Source: Vulcanimicrobiota bacterium (GTDB lineage: Bacteria; Vulcanimicrobiota; Xenobia; Xenobiales; QWHO01). Taken from it: DNA of 64,000 nucleotides. The DNA lies in the NCBI GenBank assembly GCA_039809865.1, contig JBDHVW010000011.1, positions 31,470-95,469 of the forward strand, written 5' to 3'. The position numbers and the translations under genes were made by a program. The first letter of the stretch is position 1. Each line of letters starts with the position of its first letter. Of the stretch, positions 24,684-54,810 are shown piece after piece. The notes below the pieces were generated by a model, which worked only from the letters and a program-made list of their open reading frames with translations, did not search any database and was not told the DNA's origin.

Positions 24684-25322
24684 TTGAAAGCTATTGCCTT
24701 GACAAAAGTCGCGCTTGTGGACGACCACGATCTTGTCCGGGGGGCATTCCGCTCGATCCTGGCTCAGGAGCCCGATCTCGAGATCGTGGCCGAGCTCAGT
24801 TCGGCCGATCAGCTCGGGCTCTTGGAGACTTCCAAGCCCGACGTCGTCACCCTGGATTTGATGTTGCCCGGGCCACTATCGGGCCGGGACCTGGCGGTTC
24901 GAATCCGCGAAATGTACCCGTCACTCCACATTCTGGTCGTATCGCAGCGAATCGAGTCGGTCGAGTTACAATACCTCGTTCGCGCGGGCGTCAAAGGCTT
25001 CTTGAGCAAACGCAGCGCTTTCGAGGAGTTTAGCCGGGCCATCCGCACCGTGGCGGCGGGACAATTCTACTTCTGCCCGGAGTCCTCCAGCGCGCTCGCC
25101 TCTTCGGTCGGGGTCACGAACGACTCCCCCCTGAGCGACCGCGAGGTGGAGATCCTCTCGCGGGCCGCGCGTGGGGCCACCGTCAAAGAGATCGCCGACG
25201 CCCTGTGCATCTCCCCCAAGACGGTGGAGAAGCACCGGGGGAGTATTCTGCGCAAACTCGAGAGCCGCAATATCCTCGAGGCCCTGCAACGGGCCCGAGA
25301 GCTCAAGCTGCTGTCGGACTAG
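24684..25322 (+). CDS. NarL/FixJ-family response regulator (REC + LuxR-type HTH)
   Basis: 'VALVDDHDLVRG', 'DVVTLDLMLPG' and the conserved K in 'KGFLSK'. C-terminal 'SDREVEILSRAARGATVKEIADALCISPKTVEKHRGSILRKL' is a GerE/LuxR helix-turn-helix. Confidence 0.85.
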   Translation: MKAIALTKVALVDDHDLVRGAFRSILAQEPDLEIVAELSSADQLGLLETSKPDVVTLDLMLPGPLSGRDLAVRIREMYPSLHILVVSQRIESVELQYLVRAGVKGFLSKRSAFEEFSRAIRTVAAGQFYFCPESSSALASSVGVTNDSPLSDREVEILSRAARGATVKEIADALCISPKTVEKHRGSILRKLESRNILEALQRARELKLLSD

Positions 25323-26376
25323 CCTGCGATGGGGCCGCGACGACCCCGAAAGTCAGCCGGATCTCCAGGATGCGCTGGAGGTTGGCCATGAACACCTCCA
25401 CCACCCGGGGATCGAAATGCTTGCCGCTGCTGCGGTTGATCTCGGCTACCGCCTCCTCCACCGGCCAGGCCTTCTTGTAGGGACGCTCCGAGGTGAGCGC
25501 ATCGAAGACGTCGCAAACCGCGACCAGCCGGCCCACTACCGGAATATCCTCCCCGCTGAGACCCTGCGGATAGCCGGAGCCGTCCCACTTCTCGTGGTGC
25601 GTGCGCGCGATGACCTCGGCCATCTGCAGCAGCTCGCTGCGAGCTCCCGACAGGATGCGCGCCCCGATCTCGGCGTGCGATTTCATGACCTCCCATTCCT
25701 CGGGAGTCAGCTTGCCGGGTTTGAGCAAGATGTGGTCCGGAATACCGATCTTTCCCACGTCGTGCATGGCGCTCGCGTGCCGCAGCAGCTCCACCTGACG
25801 CTCCTCCATTCCCCAGGCCTCGCCCAGGACCGAGCAGTATTCGCCGATGCGATGAATATGGTTGCCGGTGTCGTCATCGCGATACTCGGCGGCCAGCAAC
25901 AGCCGGCGCACCACCTCCAGGTGCGCGTCCTCGACCTCGCGCGCGAGGTTGCACCTGGCTTCCAGATTGCGGCGATGAACGACCCGGAGCTCGAGCAGGT
26001 TGGTGAGCTTGATGACGGCCTCCTGGGCCGTGAAGGGCTTCTGCAAGAAGTCCCGGGCGCCCATCCGCAAAGCGCGCAGCCGAACCTCATCGCCCAGGTC
26101 GCCGGTCAGGGCCAGCACGGGAACCCAGCTCTCGTCGCTCTCCACGGCACGCAGCTCCTCGAGGATCTCCCAGCCGCTTTTCCCCGGCAGCTTGAGATCG
26201 AGCACGACGGCGTCGGGCCGGTGCTCCATGTACAGTCGATAAACCTCCTGGGGGTCGGAGGTGGTGATGACTCGGGTGAAGCCCTCTCGCGCCAGAATCT
26301 TCTGCAGCAGCATGAGCACGTGGGGCTCATCGTCCACGATGAGAATGCGAGAGTGTTTCAGGCGCAGGCTGTCCAT
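25303..26376 (-). CDS. Response regulator with an HD-GYP c-di-GMP phosphodiesterase domain (RpfG-like)
   Basis: REC: 'ILIVDDEPHV', 'VVLDLKLPG', 'FLQKP'. HD-GYP: 'HD' in 'AMHDVGKIGIPD', 'HHEKWDGSGYPQGL' (GYP) and 'ERPYK'. Confidence 0.9.
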   Translation of the reverse strand: MDSLRLKHSRILIVDDEPHVLMLLQKILAREGFTRVITTSDPQEVYRLYMEHRPDAVVLDLKLPGKSGWEILEELRAVESDESWVPVLALTGDLGDEVRLRALRMGARDFLQKPFTAQEAVIKLTNLLELRVVHRRNLEARCNLAREVEDAHLEVVRRLLLAAEYRDDDTGNHIHRIGEYCSVLGEAWGMEERQVELLRHASAMHDVGKIGIPDHILLKPGKLTPEEWEVMKSHAEIGARILSGARSELLQMAEVIARTHHEKWDGSGYPQGLSGEDIPVVGRLVAVCDVFDALTSERPYKKAWPVEEAVAEINRSSGKHFDPRVVEVFMANLQRILEIRLTFGVVAAPSQASPTAA

Positions 26377-26491: not shown

Positions 26492-27400
26492 GTGTTGAAA
26501 TGGCCTGTAATCGTGAATCCGAGCTCGGGCGGCGGCAAGGGAAAAGCTGCCGAGGAAGTCTTGCAGGCATTCTGCGAGGCCCATGACGGCGAGCTCTTCT
26601 ACACCGAGCAAGAGGGACAGGGCACCGAGATCGCGCGCCGGGCCGTCGAGGCCGGCGTGGAGCGCATCGTGGTGGGGGGCGGAGATGACACCGTGCGGGA
26701 GATCCTGGCGGGAATGCTGCACGTCGAGAAGCCTCCCCAGCTCGGAATCTTGCCGCTGGGAACCTACAACAACTTTGCGCGCACGCTGGGTCTGCCCCTC
26801 GACCCGGCCCAGGCCATCGAGGTCGCGGTCAAAGGCCACAAGATGGGGGTCGACCTGGGTCAGGTCAACGGCGAGCGCGTTTTCACCGAGAGCGTGGGCG
26901 TCGGCTTTCAGGCCGACGCCTGGTCCCACAAGCCCGAAGTGGAGCCGGTGGGGATGCGGCGCCTGCTCGCGGGCGCCAGCATCGCGCTCGAGACCCTGGG
27001 CCACTACGAGCCGCACCTGTTCTATCTCACCATCGATGGGGCCGAGCAGGCGATTCGCGCCATGGATATCACCGTGGCCAACACCCCGGAGTTTGCCAAC
27101 GCGGTCACGGCCGCTCCCCTGGCCAGCGTGTCCGACGGCGTTCTCGACGTCTGCACGATCAAAGAGCTCTCCATGTTCGAGTTCCTGGCCGCCGTGCCCC
27201 TGATCTTCTCGGGACTGCATGCCTCCCTGATGTCCTCGGTCGACTACCACACAGGCAAGAAGGTGATCATCCGCGCGCCGGCCGAATCCCACCGCTGCCC
27301 CGTGCGCGTGGACAGCAGCATCGATCTGGCTCTGCCGGTCACCATCGAGGTCCTGCCCAGTCGCATCCAGGTGAGGGTTCCCCAGACGCAGTGGCCTTGA
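26492..27400 (+). CDS. DAGK_cat-family kinase (YegS/BmrU/diacylglycerol-kinase-like; same fold superfamily as NAD kinases)
   Basis: 'VIVNPSSGGGKG', 'VVGGGDDTV' (GGDG-like), 'LGILPLGTYNNFAR' (compare GTGNDFAR) and a C-terminal 'SVSDGVLDV'. GTG start. The stop overlaps the start of the downstream SIR2 gene by 10 bp. Confidence 0.8.
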   Translation: MLKWPVIVNPSSGGGKGKAAEEVLQAFCEAHDGELFYTEQEGQGTEIARRAVEAGVERIVVGGGDDTVREILAGMLHVEKPPQLGILPLGTYNNFARTLGLPLDPAQAIEVAVKGHKMGVDLGQVNGERVFTESVGVGFQADAWSHKPEVEPVGMRRLLAGASIALETLGHYEPHLFYLTIDGAEQAIRAMDITVANTPEFANAVTAAPLASVSDGVLDVCTIKELSMFEFLAAVPLIFSGLHASLMSSVDYHTGKKVIIRAPAESHRCPVRVDSSIDLALPVTIEVLPSRIQVRVPQTQWP

Positions 27401-28986
27401 CGGGGGGTCATCTCTTCATCCTGCGCGGCGACCTGAAGAGGCTGCAGTGCGATGCGTGGCTGCTCCCCGCGGGACGCTCGCTGCGGGTGGAGGACTACTG
27501 GCTGGACGCGCTTCCCTGGGCGGCGCGGGACGAACGCGGCCGGCTGGCGCTCGACAGCGTGCCGACCGCCTGGACCGAAGGTCATCTGCGCACTTTCCCG
27601 GTTGCGCGCGAGCCCCTGCCGGGCGAGGGTTGGCCGTGGCTCACCAATGTAGGCTACCGCGGCGAGCGCCACCGCCACGAAGGGATGACGCAGGGGATGG
27701 TCCAGTGGTTCACCGACGGCTTGCTGGCTTTTGTCAACGGCTGGCTGGCCGCGCCCACGCCACGCCGCACCGACCGCCCTCTGCCGCTCCTGGCCGTGCC
27801 GCTGGTCGGCACGGGACGGGGCGGGGGTCAGGCCTTCGAAGGCACGCTGGTCCACAGTCACGTGGCCGCGCTGCTCGAGCTGGTCCAAAGCCGGCCGGTG
27901 GACGTCGCGCTGGTCACCTACAGCGAGCAGGCCTTCACCGCCGCTCAAGAAGCCCGCAAAACCCTGTTGCGTCGCTCGGGCGATGGCTGGCCGCTGGCGC
28001 CCGACCAGCTTCTGCTGGCCACCGAGCTGGCCGAGAAGGCCATGCGGGGGGACCTGGTGCTGTTCCTGGGCGCCGGCGTCAGTCGCGGGGCCGGTTTGCC
28101 CGATTGGCAGGGTCTCTTGCGCGAGTTGATGGAGCAGGCGGGGATGTCGGCCCACGAGGCCAGTGCCACAGCCGACCTGAGCGTGCTGGACCAGGCGCGC
28201 ATCGTGCAGCGCCGATTGAAACGCCAGGGTCGCGAGCTGGGCTCCGCTCTGGTGGAGCGGTTCGGCGTGGAGCAGTATGGCCTGGTGCACGGCCAGCTGG
28301 CTTCGTTGAGCGTGCGCGAGACGGTGACCACCAATTATGATCCGCTCTTCGAGACGGCTTCGCGGGCCTGCGGCCACGAGGTGGCAGTGCTCCCCTACAG
28401 TCCCGTCTCGGGCTGCACGCGCTGGCTCTTGAAGCTGCACGGCTGCGTGCACCATCCCGAGGATATCGTCCTCACCCGCGAGGACTACCTGCGCTATTCC
28501 AACAACCGCGCGGCCCTGGCCGGGATCGTGCAGACCCTGTTGCTCACCAAGCACATGCTGTTCGTGGGCTTCAGCCTGCAAGACGACAACTTTCTGCGCA
28601 TCGTCGACGACGTCCGCAGGGCGCTGCGGCGGACCCCGACCGAGGAGTCGTTTGGCACCGCGCTGCTGCTGCGTTGCGATCCCATCTTGCGCGAGCTCTG
28701 GGAAGGCGAGTTGGAGCTGGCCAGCCTGGGCGAGTTGGACGAGGAGCACGGCCTGGTGGCGCGCCGCCTGGAGATCTTCCTGGACTTCCTGCTGTCGCAG
28801 GCCACCTCGCACACCGCCTACCTGCTGCGCCCCAACTTCGAGGGCGCCCTGACACCCTCGGAGCAGGCACTGCGCAAAGCCTTGCTGGAGTGGCTCGAGG
28901 AGCTGCCCGAAAAGGCCCGGGAGGCGCCCGCCTTCGAGCAGTTGGAGCGAGCTCTGGAAAGGCTCGGTTATCGTCCCGACAGGTGA
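27391..28986 (+). CDS. Macro-like N-terminal domain fused to a SIR2_2 (defence-type sirtuin-like NADase) domain
   Basis: N-terminus: 'LFILRGDLKRLQCDAWLLPAG' (compare macro GDIT...DAIVNAAN), 'LAVPLVGTGRGGG' (compare IAFPAISTGxxG) and a terminal 'VDVALVTYSE' strand. C-terminal half carries SIR2_2 signatures 'LFLGAGVSRGAGLPDWQGL', 'TTNYDPLFE', 'KLHGCVHHPEDIVLTREDY' and 'LFVGFSLQDDNF'. GTG start, translationally coupled to the upstream kinase. Confidence 0.75.
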   Translation: MALTGGHLFILRGDLKRLQCDAWLLPAGRSLRVEDYWLDALPWAARDERGRLALDSVPTAWTEGHLRTFPVAREPLPGEGWPWLTNVGYRGERHRHEGMTQGMVQWFTDGLLAFVNGWLAAPTPRRTDRPLPLLAVPLVGTGRGGGQAFEGTLVHSHVAALLELVQSRPVDVALVTYSEQAFTAAQEARKTLLRRSGDGWPLAPDQLLLATELAEKAMRGDLVLFLGAGVSRGAGLPDWQGLLRELMEQAGMSAHEASATADLSVLDQARIVQRRLKRQGRELGSALVERFGVEQYGLVHGQLASLSVRETVTTNYDPLFETASRACGHEVAVLPYSPVSGCTRWLLKLHGCVHHPEDIVLTREDYLRYSNNRAALAGIVQTLLLTKHMLFVGFSLQDDNFLRIVDDVRRALRRTPTEESFGTALLLRCDPILRELWEGELELASLGELDEEHGLVARRLEIFLDFLLSQATSHTAYLLRPNFEGALTPSEQALRKALLEWLEELPEKAREAPAFEQLERALERLGYRPDR

Positions 28987-47314: not shown

Positions 47315-50300
47315 CTACTCGGGGGGCTTGGGTCCCTGGCGATCCGGGTCGGCTTTGGTCAAGATCGGGCGGCGCCCCGTGCCGAAAGGCGTGGTGGGCG
47401 CTCCCTTCTGGCCTTCGCCGCTGTCGGGGGCGGGGAACTCGGTGCGCGGAGCGGCCCCGAACTCGGTGCGCGTGGAGCGGGCCGGGGTGGGAGCTTCCTC
47501 CTCGGTGTTGGGCACGCCCACGCCGCCGACCTCGTCCTCGAAGGAAACGGGTGGAGCGTCCTCAACCGGCTCGGAGCTGGGCGGCGGTGCACCCGGAGGC
47601 GTGGAAGCGCCGGTGCCGGGTCGCACGTTGGGCAGGGTGGGAGGCTTGCCGGGCAAGGAGCTCAAGGGCTTGTTGCCGCCGATGGTGGCTGCCGGAGGCT
47701 TGTTGCCGGTGGGCAGCCCGCCCAGCGGCTTGTTGCTAAAAGAGCTCAACGACGACGGCGGCTTGGGGCCACCGGGCGGAGTGCTGCTCAAGGGCTTGTT
47801 GACCGCCGACGTCAGGGGAGACGTCGCGGGAGTCGTGGGCGGCTTGACGGTCGGCGGAGTGACCGGGGCCGTGGGCGGCTTGACCAGCGGAGACGGCAGC
47901 CGGGTGGTCTCCACCAGGCCCGAGCTGGGCGGCTTGACCGAGCCGGACGGCGGCGGCGCGAACGACGGCGTCTTCACCGCCGGACCGACCGACGAGGGCG
48001 GGCCCGCCTCGAACGAGGGGGCGCCGGGGACCTCGATGGACGGCTCCACCGCGTGCTCGGGCATGGCGAACGCCGGGGTCTCGGAGGCGGCGTGCGCCCC
48101 CTCCTCTTCCTCGTGCGCGATGGGACCCTTGATCTGGGAGGTCAGCTCCATCGACGACGTGTCGGGAACCTGACCGCCCCACTGGTTGCGCAGCTTCTTG
48201 GCCAGCGAGGTGACGCGCTCGAGCAGGTTGCGGCCCGCCTCGGCCCGCTCCTCGCCGGGAGCCTCATCCAGCTCGAACGGATCCACGCCCAGGTCCTCGA
48301 GCTTCTTGAAGACCGAGGCCATCTCGGCCTTGGGATCGAGGAAGTAGAGCGAGCCGCGCAGGCGGATGAAACGCCAGCCCATGCGGGTCAGCACCACCTC
48401 GCGGTAAATGTCGGCCGGCAGCTTCTCGGGCGGATACTCGCTCTCGCCGTAGCACTTGATGGCCACGCGGCCACCTTTGCCCTCCACGATGAGATCGAGC
48501 TGGTAGGAGCCGACTGGCTGGTGGATGTTGACCCGATAGCCGGCCTTCCGCAGCCACTCGCCGACCTTCTGATGGAACTCGTAATCGCTCTTGGGACCGC
48601 CCACCACCCGCTCGCGCTCGAGGTCGGGCGAGGGCGGGGCCAGCGTCGACGGGTCCCGGGCGAAGCGGATCAGCATCTCGCGCAGGTCGCCCTGCTTGAG
48701 GTGCTTCATCGGATCGAGCGAGTGGACCACCCACATCTGGTCGCGGGCGCGGCTGGCGGCCACGTTGAAGCGCTTCACGAAGACGTCGGAGCGACGGATG
48801 GCCACGGGGCCCTCGCCCTCGGGCGCGTCCACCATCGACAGGAAGATCACGTCGCGCTCGTCGCCCTGGAACTGGGCGGCGTTACCGCACACGATGCGAC
48901 GCCGGCGATACTCGGTGAGCGGCAGATGCTGCACCAGCAGTCGATCGATCAGTTTGGCCTGGTCGTCGCCCACCAGCGTCACCACGCCCATCGTGCAGTG
49001 GGCATATTCCGGCTGCATGGTGGCCGCCACGAGCAGCGAGGCCACTTCGAGCGCCTCGGGCTCGTTGACTTTGCGGTCGGAGCTGGCTTCTTGCAGGTAA
49101 TGGCTGACCGTGGGCGGCGTGACCTTGACCCCGTAGCCCTCGCGCAGCGGCAACACCTCGTAGTCGTAGCAGAGCGCGTTCGAGAACGCGATGATCTCGG
49201 GCACCGAGCGGAAGTGCTCCAGCAGGCGCAGCGAGCCGCCAAAGGACTGACGCGCCAGGTCGTAGACGCTGGTGGTGCCGTCGTAAAGCTCGCGGTTGGG
49301 GATGTCGGAGAGGAACTCGTCCGACAGCGCCTTGGCGAAGTGTTGGGCCTGCCCCACGCCCTCGGGCGATACCTGCTGGTGGTCGCCCACGACCAGGACC
49401 TGCTTGCCCAGAGCCAGCGCCGTCAAACCGCGCAGGTCGCACTGGGAGGCCTCGTCCAGGATGACCACGTCGAAGGCCGACTGGCCCGGCTGGAAGCTTT
49501 CGGCCACGCGCGAGAGCGGCATGATCCAGACCGGCACCGACTCGCGGCACTCGGCCAGCGACTCGCGGGCGGTCGCGCGCAGCTCGGCGGCGCGCTTGCC
49601 GGTGCCCGCGCCGACTTTGCGCATCAGGTCGAGCCAGCCGACCAGGGCCTGCTGCTGGCGCACGCCGGTGCGTCGCAGCTGGGCGGCCCAGGCCTGGTTC
49701 TCGACGTAGCGCACCGAGGTCTCTTGCAACGCGTCGCGCAGGCGGGTGCACTCCTTGTGCAACTCGTCGAGGTCTTCCTGACCGATCGCTTTGAGGGCGA
49801 GCTCCCAGCTCTTGTGTTTCCAGGCGCGCAGTGGATCGCCCGGAGGCTTGCCCTGGTCGTGCGGCGGGATGCGGGTCTGCAGCGCCGCCGCCCAATCGGG
49901 GGCGGCCACGCGCAGGCGCTCCAAGAGGTCGCGCCGGCGCTCGTACTTCTCGACGTGGCGGGTGAGGTCGGCCACGCGGTTCCAGGCCGCCGAATAGGCC
50001 TGGGCGTCGCGATCGTTGGCCGCCTTCTTGATCTTGTAGCCCAGCGTGGTGGGATTCTGGGTGGACGGATTCTCGTTGAGATAGTCCAGCATCATCTGGA
50101 AGCGCGCAAAGAGCGGACGCCATTCCAGCTGGTCCATGCGGCGGTTGATGCCGGGTTCGACCACCTGCGCCAGCGCGGTTTTGATGCGCAAGAGCTCGCC
50201 GCCCTGCTCGGCGCTGGGCGCCACGGCCTCGAGCACCTTGTCCCAGGCCACCGAGCACTTCTTGAGAGCTTTCTCGATGGGACCGAAGAACTCGACCAGC

Positions 50301-52453
50301 CAGTTCAGCGCCAGGCGAATCTGGCGGGCGTACTGCTGGCACACGGCCTCGGGGTGCTCGCCCAGCTGATCCGACGAAGGCACGCCGCGGCCCGTCATCT
50401 GGCGGTCCCAGCGACGGCGCAGGCCTTCGCGGCGAATGCGCAACTGCAGTAAGGCGTGCAGGGCCTGGAAGTGGTCCAGCGTGCTGGGGCGCGCGCCGTC
50501 CACCCGGGCCGAGTCGAGGAACTTCTTCCAGTTGGGCTTGAGCAGCGTCTGCTGCCACCCGACCGAGCGCCCCGACTCGACCAGCGCGATCAGCGCGGTG
50601 CAAATCTTCTCGGCCTCGGCGTCGGGCATGTCGGTGTTGAGCACCGGCCCGGCCTGGAACACGCGCCGCTCGAGCGAAGCGGTCTCGGCCACGACCTTCT
50701 CGATGTAGTCGGCCAGGTCTTCCCACGACTGGCGGTACTCCTCGCCCACGCGCACCGACCAGGCGCAGTCGAGGAACCACGGCTCGGCGCCCGACAACGA
50801 CTCCAGCGCGGCCCGGGTGACCTTGAGCAGCGACTGCAAATCTTCGGGGTCTTGCTGGTCGTTGGCCCAGATGACGCCCGGATCGCTCGGGTTGGGGCCC
50901 AGGCGACCCTCCAGCTCCAGCATGTGGCGCAGCCGGTTCTCGGAGACGATGCGATCGAGCGGCGGCAGGTTGCCGGCCAGCTCCTTCTCGTCGATGGTGG
51001 TGAACTGGTCGTGGAAGCCGTACAGCTCGGCGATCTCCTCCACGCTGAGCGGAAGCGGCGCGCCGCCTTCGACCGAGCCGGGAATCCAGTCGTGGGCTCC
51101 CCGCCCCTCGGCCACCGCGCGAGCCGCGTTGACCGGGTGGATGGCCTCGCTGCCGAGCAGCCCTGCCGTGCTGTACTCCTGGCGGCACGAGTCGAGCAAG
51201 CGCTGCTCGGCCTGGCGGAGGCGGTCCTTGAGCTCGGTGCGCCGCCGCTCGTAGCTGTCGGCCAGCTTGGTCATCTCCTCGGGGTCGCTGTGGGTGAAGC
51301 GGTCCACGATGCCTTTGACCGAGATCTCCAGCTGCTCGCGGCTCTCCTGGTCGTTGTCGAGCACGCTGACGCAAAGCGGGCGGAGAGCGGGCGAAACCAT
51401 GCCGCGCAGCACGCGCAGGGCCTTGGTCGTGTGCGAGGTGACCAGCACGGTCTTTCCCTCGGCCAGCAGGTGGCCGATCAGGTTGGCGATGGTGTGCGTC
51501 TTGCCGGTTCCGGGCGGTCCCTGGACCAGCACGCAACCCATCTTGTCCAGACGTTCGCCGACGCGCTCTTGCTCGGGGTTGGATGGCAGCGTGTAGAGCA
51601 GCTCGAAGGGCCGGTCGGTCTGGCGACCCGGAGCCCGGTCCTCGATGCCGACGATCCGCACCAGAGCGGGCGGGAGCTCTTTCAGGTTGGGCAGGATCTC
51701 GAGGAAGCCCTCGATGGCTTGCGTCAGGCCCAGATGGCGCTGCCCCAGGTAAACCACGGCCTCGGACGCCAGCCAGGGGCGACCCTGGGGAGGCGTGGCC
51801 AGACCGCCAGGGCCGACGTAGTTGATGCCCAGGATCTTGGCGAGCCCCTCGAGCAGCACCTGAGAGCCCGCCTCGTAGGTGTGCGCCTCGAGGAAGCGTC
51901 GGCAGCTGCCGATGCGATTGCCGTCGACGCCGGACCAGTGCAGCACGGCGCTGTATAGCTCGGCGCCCCGGTCGGCCTCGCGCAGAGTGAACTCGGGGAT
52001 CTCGGGGTTGAAGTCGATCGACAGGCTCCAGACCGCGAGGGGATGGTAAACGGTTCCTTTGCCCGAGGTCCAGGCGAGCACGGCCTGGCCGAACATCAGC
52101 TCATAACGATCCGATTCGCGCTCGAGCAGGCGCCAGACTTCGAGCAGCCGGTCGAAGAGCTGACGGGCGCCGCGATCAGCCGGAGTGGCCGCTTCGGGCC
52201 GGGCCGGGGGAGTGGGACGGCGGACCTTGAGAACAAAATCGCTGGAAGGATCGTCTATACCCGGTGTGGGGACCGGGATGCGGCCGACCACGAGACAGGG
52301 GTGCTTGGGCAAGTCGGAAATGCGCAGCCCCCACGGGTGATCCTTGAGGTGGATCCTCGGTGGATGAGCTGCCTGCTGCAATCCGGACAAAAAGCGGAAT
52401 AGCCGGAAGATCCGGTCCCGCGCCAGGGCCTGTTCTTCGTGCGAGAGTGCCAT
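47315..52453 (-). CDS. Giant DUF4011-type protein: an Upf1-like superfamily-1 helicase (AAA_11/AAA_12) fused to a DUF559 (Vsr/PD-(D/E)XK-like) endonuclease domain, with a ~280-aa Pro/Thr-rich C-terminal tail
   Basis: Walker A 'VQGPPGTGKTHTI'. Helicase motifs 'VVILDEASQ', 'VVGDHQQVSP' and 'RIVCGNAAQFQGDERDVIFLSMV'. C-terminal 'VNIHQPVGSYQLDLIVE...VAIKCYGESEYP' is DUF559-like. A low-complexity KPP/TPP tail follows. Confidence 0.85.
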   Translation of the reverse strand: MALSHEEQALARDRIFRLFRFLSGLQQAAHPPRIHLKDHPWGLRISDLPKHPCLVVGRIPVPTPGIDDPSSDFVLKVRRPTPPARPEAATPADRGARQLFDRLLEVWRLLERESDRYELMFGQAVLAWTSGKGTVYHPLAVWSLSIDFNPEIPEFTLREADRGAELYSAVLHWSGVDGNRIGSCRRFLEAHTYEAGSQVLLEGLAKILGINYVGPGGLATPPQGRPWLASEAVVYLGQRHLGLTQAIEGFLEILPNLKELPPALVRIVGIEDRAPGRQTDRPFELLYTLPSNPEQERVGERLDKMGCVLVQGPPGTGKTHTIANLIGHLLAEGKTVLVTSHTTKALRVLRGMVSPALRPLCVSVLDNDQESREQLEISVKGIVDRFTHSDPEEMTKLADSYERRRTELKDRLRQAEQRLLDSCRQEYSTAGLLGSEAIHPVNAARAVAEGRGAHDWIPGSVEGGAPLPLSVEEIAELYGFHDQFTTIDEKELAGNLPPLDRIVSENRLRHMLELEGRLGPNPSDPGVIWANDQQDPEDLQSLLKVTRAALESLSGAEPWFLDCAWSVRVGEEYRQSWEDLADYIEKVVAETASLERRVFQAGPVLNTDMPDAEAEKICTALIALVESGRSVGWQQTLLKPNWKKFLDSARVDGARPSTLDHFQALHALLQLRIRREGLRRRWDRQMTGRGVPSSDQLGEHPEAVCQQYARQIRLALNWLVEFFGPIEKALKKCSVAWDKVLEAVAPSAEQGGELLRIKTALAQVVEPGINRRMDQLEWRPLFARFQMMLDYLNENPSTQNPTTLGYKIKKAANDRDAQAYSAAWNRVADLTRHVEKYERRRDLLERLRVAAPDWAAALQTRIPPHDQGKPPGDPLRAWKHKSWELALKAIGQEDLDELHKECTRLRDALQETSVRYVENQAWAAQLRRTGVRQQQALVGWLDLMRKVGAGTGKRAAELRATARESLAECRESVPVWIMPLSRVAESFQPGQSAFDVVILDEASQCDLRGLTALALGKQVLVVGDHQQVSPEGVGQAQHFAKALSDEFLSDIPNRELYDGTTSVYDLARQSFGGSLRLLEHFRSVPEIIAFSNALCYDYEVLPLREGYGVKVTPPTVSHYLQEASSDRKVNEPEALEVASLLVAATMQPEYAHCTMGVVTLVGDDQAKLIDRLLVQHLPLTEYRRRRIVCGNAAQFQGDERDVIFLSMVDAPEGEGPVAIRRSDVFVKRFNVAASRARDQMWVVHSLDPMKHLKQGDLREMLIRFARDPSTLAPPSPDLERERVVGGPKSDYEFHQKVGEWLRKAGYRVNIHQPVGSYQLDLIVEGKGGRVAIKCYGESEYPPEKLPADIYREVVLTRMGWRFIRLRGSLYFLDPKAEMASVFKKLEDLGVDPFELDEAPGEERAEAGRNLLERVTSLAKKLRNQWGGQVPDTSSMELTSQIKGPIAHEEEEGAHAASETPAFAMPEHAVEPSIEVPGAPSFEAGPPSSVGPAVKTPSFAPPPSGSVKPPSSGLVETTRLPSPLVKPPTAPVTPPTVKPPTTPATSPLTSAVNKPLSSTPPGGPKPPSSLSSFSNKPLGGLPTGNKPPAATIGGNKPLSSLPGKPPTLPNVRPGTGASTPPGAPPPSSEPVEDAPPVSFEDEVGGVGVPNTEEEAPTPARSTRTEFGAAPRTEFPAPDSGEGQKGAPTTPFGTGRRPILTKADPDRQGPKPPE

Positions 52454-52563: not shown

Positions 52564-54810
52564 TCACGCACTCGCAGGCGATGGAGAGGTCCGTGGATAG
52601 TCTCGTCCTGATCCAAGAAAGCCCTTATTGATCGCATCCACGCGGTTTCGGGGCTCGTAGCGCACCCCGTGGATCGAATCCAGCAGGCGCACCTGCGTGC
52701 CCGGATTCTCGCGAAAAAACCGCGCCAGGTCGCCGCGGGTGATCTGGTAGAGCTGACAGCTCTCCTCGGCTCGCGCTCCGAACTGGTGCCGCTCGACTTT
52801 CAGGAAGCGATCGGGCTCTCCGACCAGGCCGCCCCGCCCCACCAGCATGGAGTGCCCGTCGGGCGACAGTAAGCGCACGTGGCCCTGATCGACCAGAAAG
52901 TAGCGCGTCACGGGGTCGCCCGGCTTGAAAAGCCAGGCGCCGGCGGCGGCCTCGTCGTGGTTGAGCAAGATCGTGAGCTGGTTCTTCTGCAGAGCGGTCA
53001 TCTGGCGCAGCACGCGGTTGGCGTCGAACAGCTGCCAGGAGCCCAGCACGCGGTTATCCGCCAGGCGCCGGAAAAGGTCGGGAATCTTGGTGTCGCGGAT
53101 GAAGCCCAGGAAATCGCGCCGGTCCATCCAGAGAAGCTCCACGTCGGTGCGCGCCACCAGGTCGGCGGCGCGGGGCTCCTGGAGAATGAGAGCCCGCTCA
53201 CCGAAGTAGTCGTAACGACCAAAAATGTAGCGGTGCTCTGAATCGGGGGTGATCTCCACCTCGCCCGACATCACCATGTAGAAACGATCGCCTCGCTCCC
53301 CTTTGCGAAAGAGCACGTCGCCCGCATCCAGCTCCTGGTAGTGCGTCACCTGCAGGAACTCGTGGGCGCGCTCGAGCGGCATGCTGCGGAACATGTCGAT
53401 GTGCGCCAGCACGTCCAGCATCTTCTGAGCCAGGCTGGTCTGGGGAGGCTCCACCGGGATCTCGATGGTGCGCTCGGGCCCGGGCGGAGCCAGGCGCAGG
53501 CCCTGGTCGGTGGGGATGGCCGACTCGGAGACGTGCATCAGGTAGAGCCGCGCCTTGACCTCCTCGGGCAGCGCCGCCAGGACTTCGATGGGCGTGTGGA
53601 TGGGCGGGACGCCGGCTTCGTGGAACAGCACGTCCAGGTGCCAGGGGAAATCGAGCAGAGCCTGCTTGCGCTCCTGGCTGAGATAGCCCTGGGTGTGCAG
53701 GTCGCCCAGGCGCACCGGGTCATAGAGCGTGTCGCAGCTGTAGGCGAAGCCCTTGCCCTGGTACTCCACATGGAATCCCAGCGTGGGGATGGGATGGAAC
53801 GTGTAGTGGAACGTGAACATCGCGCCGCCGATGCGCAGCGGTTGCCCGATGATCACCGGCCGGAAAGCAAAAAGGCTGCGCAACTCGGCCCGGGTAAAAT
53901 CGGTCAGAGCGGAATACTTGGTGAGGAAGCTCTGCATCACGGTCTCGGTCGTGTGCAGCCGCACGCGCCCTTCTTCCAGGAGCTTCTGCATCGTGCCGGA
54001 GTCGTGGTCGGCGTGGCAGTGGGTCAGCACCACGTCCTGGATAAGCCGATTGTTGATTCCATTGGCTTTCAGCCAGGCCGTGGCGTTGACCGGAGGGTCC
54101 ACCATGACCCCCTTCTGGTCTACCCACAGGATGAAGCCCGAGGTGGAGGTGGCGGCGTCGAAGCCGTGGCCGCTGCCGATCACGGTGATGCCGAACACGG
54201 GCGGCATCCAGAGCGGGTGGGCACATTCCTCCTCCGCGCGTGGCCGGGCGGAGCGGTAGCCGAACACCACCTCCTGGGTTTGCTCCCCCGACTGCACGCG
54301 GTAGGAGCTGGCCGCGACGCGCTCGATGACGTGCCCGTCGACCGCGATCCGGTCGTTCTCGTCGAACGTCTGGACCTTCAGGAAATGCTTCAGGCGCAGC
54401 TTGCCGAGCACCGGATCCTTCTTGAAGAACGACATCTCGCGCTCGAGGTCGGGAAATCCGGCCGATTGGCGGCCGTCGGGGAACTCGCGCTCGAGCTCGA
54501 GGCGGCGGGGTCCGAACAGTGCCTCGCAAAGCACCCTCAGAATGCGGCGCACCTGGCCCTTGCGGCACAACAGGCGCAACTTGCGGCGCTGCACGTAAAA
54601 GTTGTAGTAGAGCGGAAACTCGAGCTCGGCGGCACTGACCCCGGCCTCGGTGTCGAAGAGCAGATCGGGCAGCAGATACAGGTCTGGCACGCCCTCGGCC
54701 AGCTGCATGGTGTCCTTGATGGTCTCCGGATAGGCCCCCACCTGCATCCTGAGCCCTGGACCCGTAACCAGCAATCCTCCCCGGGGCAGCTCCTCGAGCT
54801 TAAGGAACAT
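52564..54810 (-). CDS. MBL-fold metallo-hydrolase fused to two cyclic-nucleotide-binding (cNMP/CAP-like) domains
   Basis: 'LTHCHADHDSG' (HxHxDH). Two cNMP-binding-like segments near the C-terminus: 'GDVLFRKGERGDRFYMVMSGEV' and 'GAWLFKPGDPVTRYFLVDQGHV'. Confidence 0.75.
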   Translation of the reverse strand: MFLKLEELPRGGLLVTGPGLRMQVGAYPETIKDTMQLAEGVPDLYLLPDLLFDTEAGVSAAELEFPLYYNFYVQRRKLRLLCRKGQVRRILRVLCEALFGPRRLELEREFPDGRQSAGFPDLEREMSFFKKDPVLGKLRLKHFLKVQTFDENDRIAVDGHVIERVAASSYRVQSGEQTQEVVFGYRSARPRAEEECAHPLWMPPVFGITVIGSGHGFDAATSTSGFILWVDQKGVMVDPPVNATAWLKANGINNRLIQDVVLTHCHADHDSGTMQKLLEEGRVRLHTTETVMQSFLTKYSALTDFTRAELRSLFAFRPVIIGQPLRIGGAMFTFHYTFHPIPTLGFHVEYQGKGFAYSCDTLYDPVRLGDLHTQGYLSQERKQALLDFPWHLDVLFHEAGVPPIHTPIEVLAALPEEVKARLYLMHVSESAIPTDQGLRLAPPGPERTIEIPVEPPQTSLAQKMLDVLAHIDMFRSMPLERAHEFLQVTHYQELDAGDVLFRKGERGDRFYMVMSGEVEITPDSEHRYIFGRYDYFGERALILQEPRAADLVARTDVELLWMDRRDFLGFIRDTKIPDLFRRLADNRVLGSWQLFDANRVLRQMTALQKNQLTILLNHDEAAAGAWLFKPGDPVTRYFLVDQGHVRLLSPDGHSMLVGRGGLVGEPDRFLKVERHQFGARAEESCQLYQITRGDLARFFRENPGTQVRLLDSIHGVRYEPRNRVDAINKGFLGSGRDYPRTSPSPASA

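Follow-up and report, generated by a model that had tools for sequence, protein, structure and literature searches.

The Macro-SIR2 gene lies in the 64-kb window, the whole stretch of DNA that was analysed, and its product combines an N-terminal macro-like domain, a SIR2_2 domain and a C-terminal helical extension (Table 1). An identical protein is present in a public protein collection (P0001). A YegS/DAGK_cat-type kinase gene overlaps the start of Macro-SIR2, and the two are arranged as a translationally coupled pair. The same arrangement is found at L005/L008, L006 and L009 and is absent in distant homologues, with the exception of one distant locus in which a DAGK gene lies 1 kb downstream. 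As the linkage is confined to relatives of 71-78% identity that have the whole neighbourhood in common, the kinase gene was rejected as a conserved partner, and its linkage most likely represents lineage synteny. The surrounding genes are of two-component, c-di-GMP and housekeeping types, and synteny around Macro-SIR2 is stable among relatives of the window. No island signatures (tRNA genes or GC deviation) were found in the window, and neither tblastn nor the Pfam census revealed NrtR, ARG or ARPP genes there.

Table 1. Features of the Macro-SIR2 locus (positions in the window)
Feature	Position	Strand	Remarks
YegS/DAGK_cat-type kinase gene, upstream of Macro-SIR2	26492..27400	+	DAGK_cat Pfam 3.6e-31, with YegS_C
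Macro-SIR2 ORF, complete, 531 aa + stop	27391..28986	+	GTG start 27391; alternative TTG 27397
Predicted N-terminal divergent macro domain, aa 1-~197	27391..27981	+	Flanking helices around a 6-stranded beta-sheet
GDL...CDAWLLP motif, aa 14-26	27430..27468	+	Aligned to YmdB and macroH2A motifs
D21 codon, within GDL...CDAWLLP motif	27451-27453	+	Equivalent of the adenine-N6-binding Asp of macro domains
Family-specific segment in place of macro catalytic/ribose loop 1, aa 28-67	27472..27591	+	
Loop 2 equivalent (phosphate-binding), LAVPLVGTGRGGG, aa 133-145, and G151 in next helix (H146-167)	27787..27843	+	
SIR2_2/SIRim domain (predicted NADase), aa ~204-470	28000..28800	+	
Asn315 of TTNYD, predicted catalytic	28333..28335	+	Invariant, n=50 homologues
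His350 of KLHG, predicted catalytic	28438..28440	+	Invariant, n=50 homologues
C-terminal helical extension, aa ~471-531	28801..28983	+	Helices H481-524 in model

A preliminary description of this DNA had proposed that one polypeptide unites a macro-like fold with an intact SIR2_2 NADase core, and this is confirmed by fold, Pfam match and residue conservation. In the predicted structure, the N-terminal domain adopts the three-layer alpha/beta/alpha macro fold expected of it. The hallmarks assigned to it, GDL...CDAWLLPAG and a phosphate-binding loop 2, are also borne out. D21, W23 and P26 of the first motif are invariant among Macro-SIR2 homologues, and D21, which aligns with the Asp of VDVIVNAAN in YmdB and of CDAVVHPTN in macroH2A, supplies the adenine-coordinating Asp of the strand equivalent to DxxxxNAAN. 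The loop 2 equivalent has the diphosphate-binding pattern xFPxISxGxxG and aligns with IAFPSIGSG of macroH2A; L133, P137 and G151 are invariant in this region, and conservation reaches 90% or more at G142, G144 and G145.

The canonical GGGV loop 1, reported as missing in the preliminary description, is indeed absent, and the domain is divergent as stated there. The N-domain contains none of the loop 1 or catalytic motifs listed for macro domains (GGGxDx3H, HGGG, GxGxC, Zn-loop with Dx3H; PMC11490716). Residues 27 to 80 lack any conserved Gly, His or Cys, the only conserved positions being V33, W37, P58, W61 and R67. Residues 1-200 gave no match to Pfam, and the Pfam Macro models (PF01661 and relatives) were reached by none of 27 family N-domains, even at E<=10. 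As the macro domain is invisible to these models, family members are annotated just as 'SIR2 family protein' or hypothetical. An hhalign comparison with a YmdB profile, which is shallow and composed of homologues too similar to one another, aligned just the first 30 columns (probability 21-25%), and the sole sequence-level support for macro homology is the match of the A2 profile to macroH2A1.1 (7ny6; E=7.6e-4). The structural model suggests that the N-terminal region is most likely a very divergent, non-catalytic macro domain.

In canonical macro domains, loop 1 contacts the distal ribose and the diphosphate, so that its absence here could mean that nucleotide binding has been lost. The domain would then be a degenerate structural module, serving as an autoinhibitory cap, as a base for oligomerization or as the place where a trigger protein, such as one from a phage, docks in the manner of DSR2-type direct sensing. 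The failure of all 27 members to reach the Pfam models and the short span of the YmdB alignment are compatible with this, and single-chain SIR2 effectors such as DSR2, which is among the best sequence matches of Macro-SIR2, sense proteins and not nucleotides. Self-association is suggested by whole-unit tandem duplication. Against such a module, the residues held invariant are the adenine Asp, a Gly-rich loop at a helix N terminus, three Trp and two or three Arg, a pattern expected of a nucleotide pocket and not of a scaffold, and the recurrence of ADPR-related neighbours (see below) fits a nucleotide ligand. A degenerate module is considered distinctly unlikely.

The SIR2_2 core was described as intact, with the Asn of TTNYD and the His of KLHG in place, and this is upheld by a PF13289 match of 93.7 bits (gathering cut-off 24.5, E=1.4e-26) and by the invariance of both residues. 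When aligned with DSR2, the block containing Asn315 pairs with TTNYD and that containing His350 with KVHG; entries for DSR2 H171A have lower scores. The SIR2 half lacks the four Zn-binding Cys typical of classical sirtuins; it has no CxxC pair, and C352 is its only partly conserved Cys (68%). SIRim NADases without this tetrad have been described (bioRxiv 2024.09.18.613514). By sequence, the SIR2_2 (SIRim) domain is a putative ThsA/KomC/DSR-type NAD+ glycohydrolase. The C-terminal extension, for which a family search gave no match, has conserved residues at L487, E491, L498 and G526 and possibly has a role in oligomerization.

A ThsA-like logic with a different sensor had also been proposed, together with the absence of any TIR-domain gene from the window. 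The absence of TIR genes is supported. None was found among the 10 genes nearest to Macro-SIR2, there is no TIR family among the 25 listed Pfam families that each match at least two of the 135 immediate neighbours of Macro-SIR2 genes, and all-against-all clustering of neighbours yielded no TIR cluster. Window-wide, PADLOC returned 'PycTIR/Effector TIR' matches at about 1e-8. The candidate most likely to account for them is the 748-aa product of 52567-54810 (- strand), 24 kb from Macro-SIR2, which contains several cNMP-binding domains and is the only protein found in the window to do so. No TIR similarity was found in this product, and since solved structures match it through the cNMP-binding domains alone, the PADLOC matches are read as a shared module and not as TIR; the candidate was rejected. 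The interpretation as a ThsA-like logic is partly supported: the macro fold and the SIR2_2 core stand, and membership of Thoeris was rejected. Macro-SIR2 has no C-terminal SLOG domain and no N-terminal transmembrane helices (the maximum 19-residue Kyte-Doolittle mean, 1.56, falls in a segment of the SIR2 core), and no TIR gene occurs in about 85 Macro-SIR2 loci, which indicates that this is not a Thoeris system.

Macro-SIR2 proteins form a widespread, uncharacterized family. The two-domain architecture comprises about 1,100 clusters at 50% identity from many phyla; it is sparsely and patchily distributed (at least 259 species of about 185,000), and cultured carriers include strains of Arthrobacter, Microbacterium, Polyangium, Gemmata and Mycobacterium. 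Whole-unit tandem duplications occur in the family. Searches with the N-domain also gave stand-alone matches of ~180-250 aa, which may be true single-domain genes or fragments at contig ends. The full-length protein had no match among PLSDB plasmids, and the macro domain had none among phage records.

The neighbourhoods are varied, with 144 Pfam families represented in the 135 immediate neighbours. An NrtR-type regulator is the commonest of these, and ADP-ribosylglycohydrolase genes recur. NrtR regulator and/or ARG-phosphatase/ARPP genes lie near Macro-SIR2 at 19 of 84 homologous loci (about 23%), and a further locus, L093, has an ARG-centric neighbour set; the Macro-SIR2 gene is situated within or beside such sets in several gene orders. 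Three quarters of the loci have no ADPR-related neighbour. Because the ARG-centric link is present at these loci and absent in the window, it is a property of the family and not of this locus. Some loci adjoin NERD/UvrD or PLD-helicase genes, or REase-ARP or ParAB-type mobile contexts, and known defence genes are found nearby only occasionally. In four Polyangium genomes the gene directly upstream is a Ser/Thr kinase-AAA_16 gene, and in one Planctomycetota MAG an upstream gene encodes a Pkinase-FGE-sulfatase protein. The phyla concerned are kinase-rich, so that this is weak evidence, and the kinase was rejected as a partner.

An alternative is that Macro-SIR2 is a regulated NADase or other NAD-consuming enzyme of NAD+/ADPR homeostasis, which is under feedback control through detection of its product ADPR by the macro domain and which in some lineages belongs to an NrtR regulon balancing NAD synthesis against consumption. 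NrtR-type regulators are classic ADPR-responsive regulators of NAD metabolism (PMC9503650), and they are the most frequent immediate neighbour of Macro-SIR2. The gene in the window is carried on the chromosome, has a native composition and keeps its synteny with non-defence genes; its coupled YegS/DAGK neighbour has the NAD-kinase fold, and the lack of plasmid and phage matches is also in keeping with a housekeeping role. The patchy distribution, the highly variable neighbourhoods and the mobile or helicase-containing contexts of some loci do not favour homeostasis. Moreover, the SIR2 domain falls within the SIRim clade, bacterial members of which are 12-fold enriched near defence systems (bioRxiv 2024.09.18.613514), and the NrtR genes concerned are located in ARG-centric operons, themselves predicted conflict systems. 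A homeostatic role is considered unlikely.

Direct support exists for the folds of the domains, for the conserved catalytic and ligand-contact residues, for the size of the family, for the absence of TIR genes and for the recurrent NrtR/ARG/ARPP neighbourhood. For the protein, we infer that it binds a ligand, which ligand this is and in which direction it regulates, that the SIR2 domain is active as an NADase, and that the protein has a part in immunity. The favoured reading, with roughly even chances of being correct, is that Macro-SIR2 is a soluble sensor-effector with an NADase gated by an ADPR-type ligand. It is probably a self-contained, ligand-switched NAD+ depletion device that dispenses with a TIR signalling partner. 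The macro domain would bind an ADP-ribose-containing ligand, with D21 holding the adenine and the Gly-rich loop 2 holding the diphosphate, while a family-specific Trp/Arg pocket standing in for loop 1 would read the distal ribose or its substituent. The signal may then pass through a rigid macro-SIR2 interface, probably by altering how the protein oligomerizes, as happens in ThsA, switching on NAD+ hydrolysis and causing collapse of cellular NAD+. As no TIR cyclase is linked to Macro-SIR2, the trigger would most likely be free ADPR or ADPR freed from ADP-ribosylated macromolecules, for example following phage ADP-ribosyltransferase activity and processing by the ARG hydrolases that are often its neighbours. 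The SIR2 reaction yields ADPR, which also induces the neighbouring NrtR repressors, and the circuit could thus be self-amplifying.

Ligand-gated SIR2 NADases, of which ThsA is an example, are a central paradigm in abortive-infection immunity, and in eukaryotes their relatives (FAM118/SIRanc, sirims) are only now being tied to innate immunity. An extension of the ADPR-gated reading, speculative and on present evidence improbable, is that Macro-SIR2 works on its own as an immune sensor of ADP-ribosylation and is the effector arm of ARG-centric systems. The remodelled macro pocket would recognize ADPR or a conjugate generated by a phage ADP-ribosyltransferase or another NAD-consuming attack, and binding would lead to filamentous activation of the SIR2 NADase. 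ADPR would feed back on both the macro domain and the neighbouring NrtR repressor, making NAD+ loss autocatalytic and all-or-none, and the collapse would also deprive the viral transferase of substrate. If this is the case, Macro-SIR2 would be the first SIR2 defence to be gated by ADPR independently of TIR, it would supply the effector arm that 'ARG-centric' systems have been missing, and it may be the bacterial ancestor of eukaryotic SIRim-Macro proteins.

The family would add macro, as a third sensor type, to the SIRim effector repertoire, one that current annotation overlooks because no sequence model picks up the macro domain. The lack of a TIR partner and the recurrent linkage to NrtR and ADP-ribosylglycohydrolase genes make it a tractable single-gene system, in which it could be asked whether ADP-ribose or ADP-ribosylation itself is a bacterial danger signal, and what the predicted 'ARG-centric' anti-ADP-ribosylation systems actually do.

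Comparison with type I Thoeris ThsA (SIR2-SLOG) shows that the sensor is an N-terminal macro domain in Macro-SIR2 and a C-terminal SLOG domain in ThsA. The match of Macro-SIR2 to the ThsA model, which has 478 positions, is restricted to positions 11-216, and neither the window nor any of about 85 homologous loci has a ThsB/TIR gene linked to Macro-SIR2. The likeness to type II ThsA (TM-Macro; EcThsA, PDB 8v6q) lies in the macro domain, which acts there as receptor of an ADPR-derived signal; its reported ligands are ADPR and imidazole adenine dinucleotide (PMC11204291) and, in preprints, His-ADPR. KomC, of the KomBC complex (PDB 9v0g, 8zsf), differs in being a stand-alone SIR2 protein of ~264-278 aa, with a separate partner, KomB, and no macro domain. 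The ARG-centric systems of Iyer et al. (2022; PMC9503650) consist of an NrtR/WYL regulator, ARG-phosphatase, ARPP and variable Macro/NADAR/REase modules, and Macro-SIR2 fits the description of the variable 'Macro' accessory or effector module. Those systems were chosen for the absence of a coupled ART or sirtuin, and the section describing them mentions no SIR2 fusion.

Macro and sirtuin domains form an established ADP-ribosylation pair, as in SirTM/Zn-Macro and fungal Mfs1 (PDB 8rsn). By analogy, the SIR2 domain of Macro-SIR2 could ADP-ribosylate a protein or nucleic-acid target, with the macro domain reading or removing the mark and the ARG neighbours serving as additional erasers. The recurrence of ADP-ribosylglycohydrolase genes is consistent with such a writer-eraser module, and Mfs1, at 532 aa of near-equal length (about 530 aa), likewise has an N-terminal macro domain, a C-terminal sirtuin fold and a place in NAD/ADP-ribose biology. 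However, structural similarity to Mfs1 is confined to the macro half. SirTM belongs to another sirtuin class, in which Gln replaces the catalytic His and the activity is that of an ADP-ribosyltransferase, whereas His350 is invariant in Macro-SIR2; the SirTM/Zn-Macro macro domain is a catalytic Zn-dependent eraser, whereas that of Macro-SIR2 has neither Zn-loop nor Dx3H. A writer-eraser function is therefore very unlikely.

The eukaryotic SIRim-Macro proteins join the same two superfamilies in one polypeptide, and the literature mentions them as architectures only. SIRim clade C is reported to branch with ThsA-like bacterial sirims (bioRxiv 2024.09.18.613514; PMC12700824, Extended Data Fig. 2 legend). 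The SIR2-macro combination has thus already been noted in these eukaryotic fusions.

The Macro-SIR2 reading frame is a genuine gene; its GC3 is 0.87, and its codon-position GC is coding-like for a window of 66% GC. A protein in the public collection, P0001, is identical to its product, in which all the motifs quoted in the preliminary description were found in place. Both possible starts, GTG and TTG, overlap the TGA (27398-27400) that ends the upstream kinase gene, and the two genes are therefore translationally coupled. This pair is retained in Xenobia-like relatives (L005/L008, L006 and L009). The L009 contig (CAZWUN010000122.1) is labelled 'uncultured Burkholderiales', yet its homologue shares 71% identity with the window protein and is abutted on the upstream side by a DAGK gene, as in the window; the contig's binning or label may be wrong. 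A Nanopelagicales MAG (L065) also has a DAGK_cat/YegS gene, 1 kb downstream of its homologue.

Coordinates of features in the window and at homologous loci (L numbers)
Feature	Position	Strand	Remarks
Signalling gene	24684-25322	+	
Signalling gene	25303-26376	-	
YegS/DAGK_cat-type kinase	26492-27400	+	NAD-kinase-like fold; coupled to Macro-SIR2, junction 27391-27400
Macro-SIR2	27391-28986	+	531 codons, GTG start; alternative TTG start at 27397
Upf1/Sen1-like SF1 helicase	47318-52453	-	1,712 aa; adjoins the 748-aa cNMP-binding protein
cNMP-binding protein	52567-54810	-	748 aa; two or three cNMP-binding domains and a ~440-aa N-terminal part without assigned family
EEP gene	L093:7125-7943		Beside or near homologue
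EEP gene	L004:5178-6023		Beside or near homologue
NERD helicase	L081:1183-2817	+	6-nt overlap with Macro-SIR2 start
DUF4127 protein	L090:8520-10157		After Macro-SIR2
DUF4127 protein	L092:9617-11239		12 nt downstream of Macro-SIR2

By its C-terminal half, Macro-SIR2 belongs to the SIR2_2/SIRim family. Residues 310-430 match Pfam SIR2_2 (PF13289; E=1.4e-26; 93.7 bits vs a cut-off of 24.5), and PADLOC ranks the SIR2 portion of ThsA1 first (E=1.4e-32; positions 11-216 of the 478 in the model), then PDC-S25, Dsr2, LmuA and Dsr1. The solved structures matching aa ~205-431/464 are DSR2, SeThsA, BcThsA and KomC. When the protein is aligned with DSR2, its TTNYD and KLHG blocks fall on TTNYD and KVHG, and DSR2 H171A entries score lower than wild-type DSR2. 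The invariance of His350, a fold class that is SIRim and not SirTM, and the lack of a Zn-loop all argue against a SirTM-like writer or eraser of ADP-ribosylation, a role that is very unlikely.

The macro domain in the N-terminal half is cryptic to sequence models. As a single sequence, aa 1-200 gave no match in Pfam, PADLOC, NCBIfam or PDB sequences, and none of 27 family N-domains matched the Pfam Macro models even at E<=10. A profile of 27 N-domains gave one marginal match in the PDB, to the Capsaspora macroH2A1.1 macrodomain (7ny6, E=7.6e-4), pairing 'vFivrgdLtklacDaWLlPtd' with 'LYVVNGDLTEVRCDAVVHPTN' and 'lalPlvgtGk' with 'IAFPSIGSGN'. Alignment by hhalign to E. coli YmdB, or to a shallow YmdB profile, covered the first 30 columns only (GHLFILRGDLKRLQCDAWLLPAG / TRIHVVQGDITKLAVDVIVNAAN). 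The isolated domain was modelled with a pLDDT of 91.7. With Foldseek, YmdB (E=3.5e-8) was followed by macroH2A, PARP14, OiMacroD and MacroD1/2 (probability 1.00 for all). Because the top matches of both structure searches are exclusively macro domains, the predicted fold places the N-domain in the macro superfamily, as the preliminary description had it, and excludes for this model the SLOG fold with which a comparison had been proposed.

Invariant or near-invariant residues of the N-domain are G6, H7, F9, D14, L15, C20, D21, W23, L24, P26, W37, W61, R67, F114, R129, L133, P137, G142, G144, G145, G151, D171, V175, A184, A185, Q186 and R189. D21 stands where macro domains have their adenine-binding Asp, and P137...G142-x-G144-G145, with G151 in the next helix, is the counterpart of diphosphate-binding loop 2. 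In the loop-1 equivalent (aa 27-80), no Gly, His or Cys is conserved among homologues; the sole conserved residues are V33, W37, P58, W61 and R67. The catalytic loop-1 motifs of macro hydrolases (GGGxDx3H, HGGG, GxGxC, or a Zn-loop with Dx3H; PMC11490716) are all missing. We infer that this macro is of the non-catalytic, binding type and that Trp and Arg residues have remodelled the distal-ribose site of its pocket, which could then take a ligand unlike plain ADPR at that end. Alternatively, the domain could be a degenerate macro acting as a scaffold or protein-docking module, but this is quite unlikely.

The full-length search returned >1,270 homologues. Nearly all of the best 120 have 93-100% query coverage and ~500-590 aa (two are shorter, with 72% and 80% coverage), and all are annotated as 'SIR2 family protein' or hypothetical. 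The N-domain HMM, searched in 1.84 billion representative proteins, matched 1,510 clusters with E<=1e-3, of which 1,111 had E<=1e-10. The 150 matches listed are mostly ~500-580 aa, and the shorter ones may be fragments; SIR2_2 is present in all ten longest, and the N-domain appears obligatorily coupled to it. P0121 (1,693 aa), P0122 (1,112 aa) and P0216 (1,028 aa) each have two or three N-domain and two SIR2_2 matches and seem to repeat the whole unit two or three times in tandem. Such tandem copies in one polypeptide suggest that the unit is normally oligomeric, and it probably self-associates. Macro-SIR2 occurs in at least 259 genomes of GTDB species representatives, from phyla including Eremiobacterota (Xenobia, Vulcanimicrobiota), Myxococcota (Polyangium, Bradymonadia), Planctomycetota (Gemmata), Chloroflexota, Acidobacteriota and Actinomycetota (Arthrobacter, Microbacterium, Agrococcus, Actinomycetospora, Mycobacterium kyorinense). 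The nearest relatives, in Candidatus Xenobia MAGs, are 72-78% identical. No full-length homologue was found in 72,556 plasmids, and no N-domain match in 50,697 phage records.

In the window, Macro-SIR2 is surrounded by genes for a LuxR-type response regulator, an RR-HD_5 protein, the coupled kinase, a convergent alpha/beta hydrolase, DUF6624, a 682-aa Band_7 protein and a WD40 protein, an arrangement kept in close relatives and absent from distant homologues. Neither a tRNA nor a GC anomaly was found in the window, which also lacks NrtR, ARG and ARPP genes. It holds many signalling genes (four response-regulator receiver domains, two PAS histidine kinases, the HD-GYP-like RR-HD_5, EAL, GGDEF and two PilZ), and the setting is therefore a c-di-GMP/two-component neighbourhood and not a defence island. 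PADLOC matches of MkoA/Hhe type probably arise from the SF1 helicase. The sole TIR-flavoured matches (PycTIR/Effector-TIR, about 1e-8) most likely represent the 748-aa cNMP-binding protein, 24 kb from Macro-SIR2, in which no TIR similarity was found. This protein and the helicase could form a cyclic-nucleotide-responsive, defence-like pair. Further window proteins match PDC-S37 (one protein, E=1.7e-47), a PADLOC candidate system, and MkoC, mad3/mad8 and AriA.

All flanking ORFs of ~85 loci were clustered, and 135 immediate neighbours, matching 144 different Pfam families, were surveyed with Pfam and PADLOC. No TIR family is among the 25 listed families that match at least two of these neighbours. 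The commonest are NrtR (NUDIX + NrtR_WHD; six), UvrD-type helicases (four) and ADP_ribosyl_GH + DSPc (three). By tblastn of full flanks, ADPR-related genes occur in 19 of 84 loci (NrtR-like in 17, ARG-DSPc in 12, ARPP-1 in eight), in at least four arrangements. NrtR stands alone, divergent or convergent, beside Macro-SIR2 in proteobacterial, Gaiellales and Arthrobacter contigs; in a further, metagenomic locus (L093), an EEP phosphatase, an HTH regulator, ARPP-1 and REase-ARP surround the homologue. EEP genes accompany homologues at two or more unrelated loci, and the family appears twice in the census.

Other neighbours are sporadic, and include NERD/UvrD helicases, PLD-ResIII-DUF3427 helicases and a ParAB/HTH/helicase/M78-UvrD-PDDEXK setting. 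A NERD-domain/AAA helicase (~545-600 aa) recurs in Actinomycetota (L070, L072, L086, L087 and L081, a Bifidobacterium MAG contig), and a DUF4127 protein (~540 aa) follows Macro-SIR2 at two loci. In Polyangium (L012, L015, L020 and L050), a 1,290-1,350-aa fusion of a Ser/Thr kinase and an AAA_16 (STAND-like) ATPase lies directly upstream in the same orientation, either 3 nt away or overlapping by 9 nt; in L048 (Planctomycetota), a 1,148-aa kinase-FGE-sulfatase fusion lies 43 nt upstream. Such genes could encode a kinase/STAND sensor that partners the NADase, or could lie there by chance, as these phyla are rich in kinases.

The best-supported reading, with an even chance of being correct, is that Macro-SIR2 is a ligand-gated NADase. 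A binding-type macro and an intact SIRim catalytic core would form one rigid two-domain body, arranged on the same principle as ThsA, with another kind of sensor and no signal synthase dedicated to it. Given the lack of a TIR partner, the ADPR-type affinity of the macro fold and the recurrent NrtR/ARG/ARPP neighbours, the most economical candidate ligand is ADPR, either free or set loose from ADP-ribosylated macromolecules. Since ADPR is both the SIR2 product and the NrtR inducer, a self-amplifying switch is conceivable. A rival reading, a housekeeping role in NAD/ADPR homeostasis, is unlikely.

No description or characterization of the bacterial family was found in the literature, Burroughs et al. 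(2015) lying outside that search. The family is plainly real and widespread, lacks annotation and lends itself to experiments; its mechanism is inferred. Membership of SirTM/Mfs1 is ruled out. Macro-SIR2 was rejected as Thoeris type I, having neither SLOG nor ThsB, and as type II, having no TM segment, a distant macro and no ThsB. The neighbouring NrtR, ARG-DSPc, ARPP-1 and REase-ARP genes correspond to the ARG-centric gene set, for which Iyer et al. (2022; PMC9503650) predicted a role against viral ADP-ribosylation; its NrtR/WYL repressors sense ADPR, and its 'Macro/NADAR' and nuclease modules vary. In the FAM118 paper (PMC12700824), some members of the SIR2_2 tree are labelled 'Macro'; the idea of SIRim and Macro within one protein is already known, and the Macro-SIR2 architecture is therefore partly precedented.
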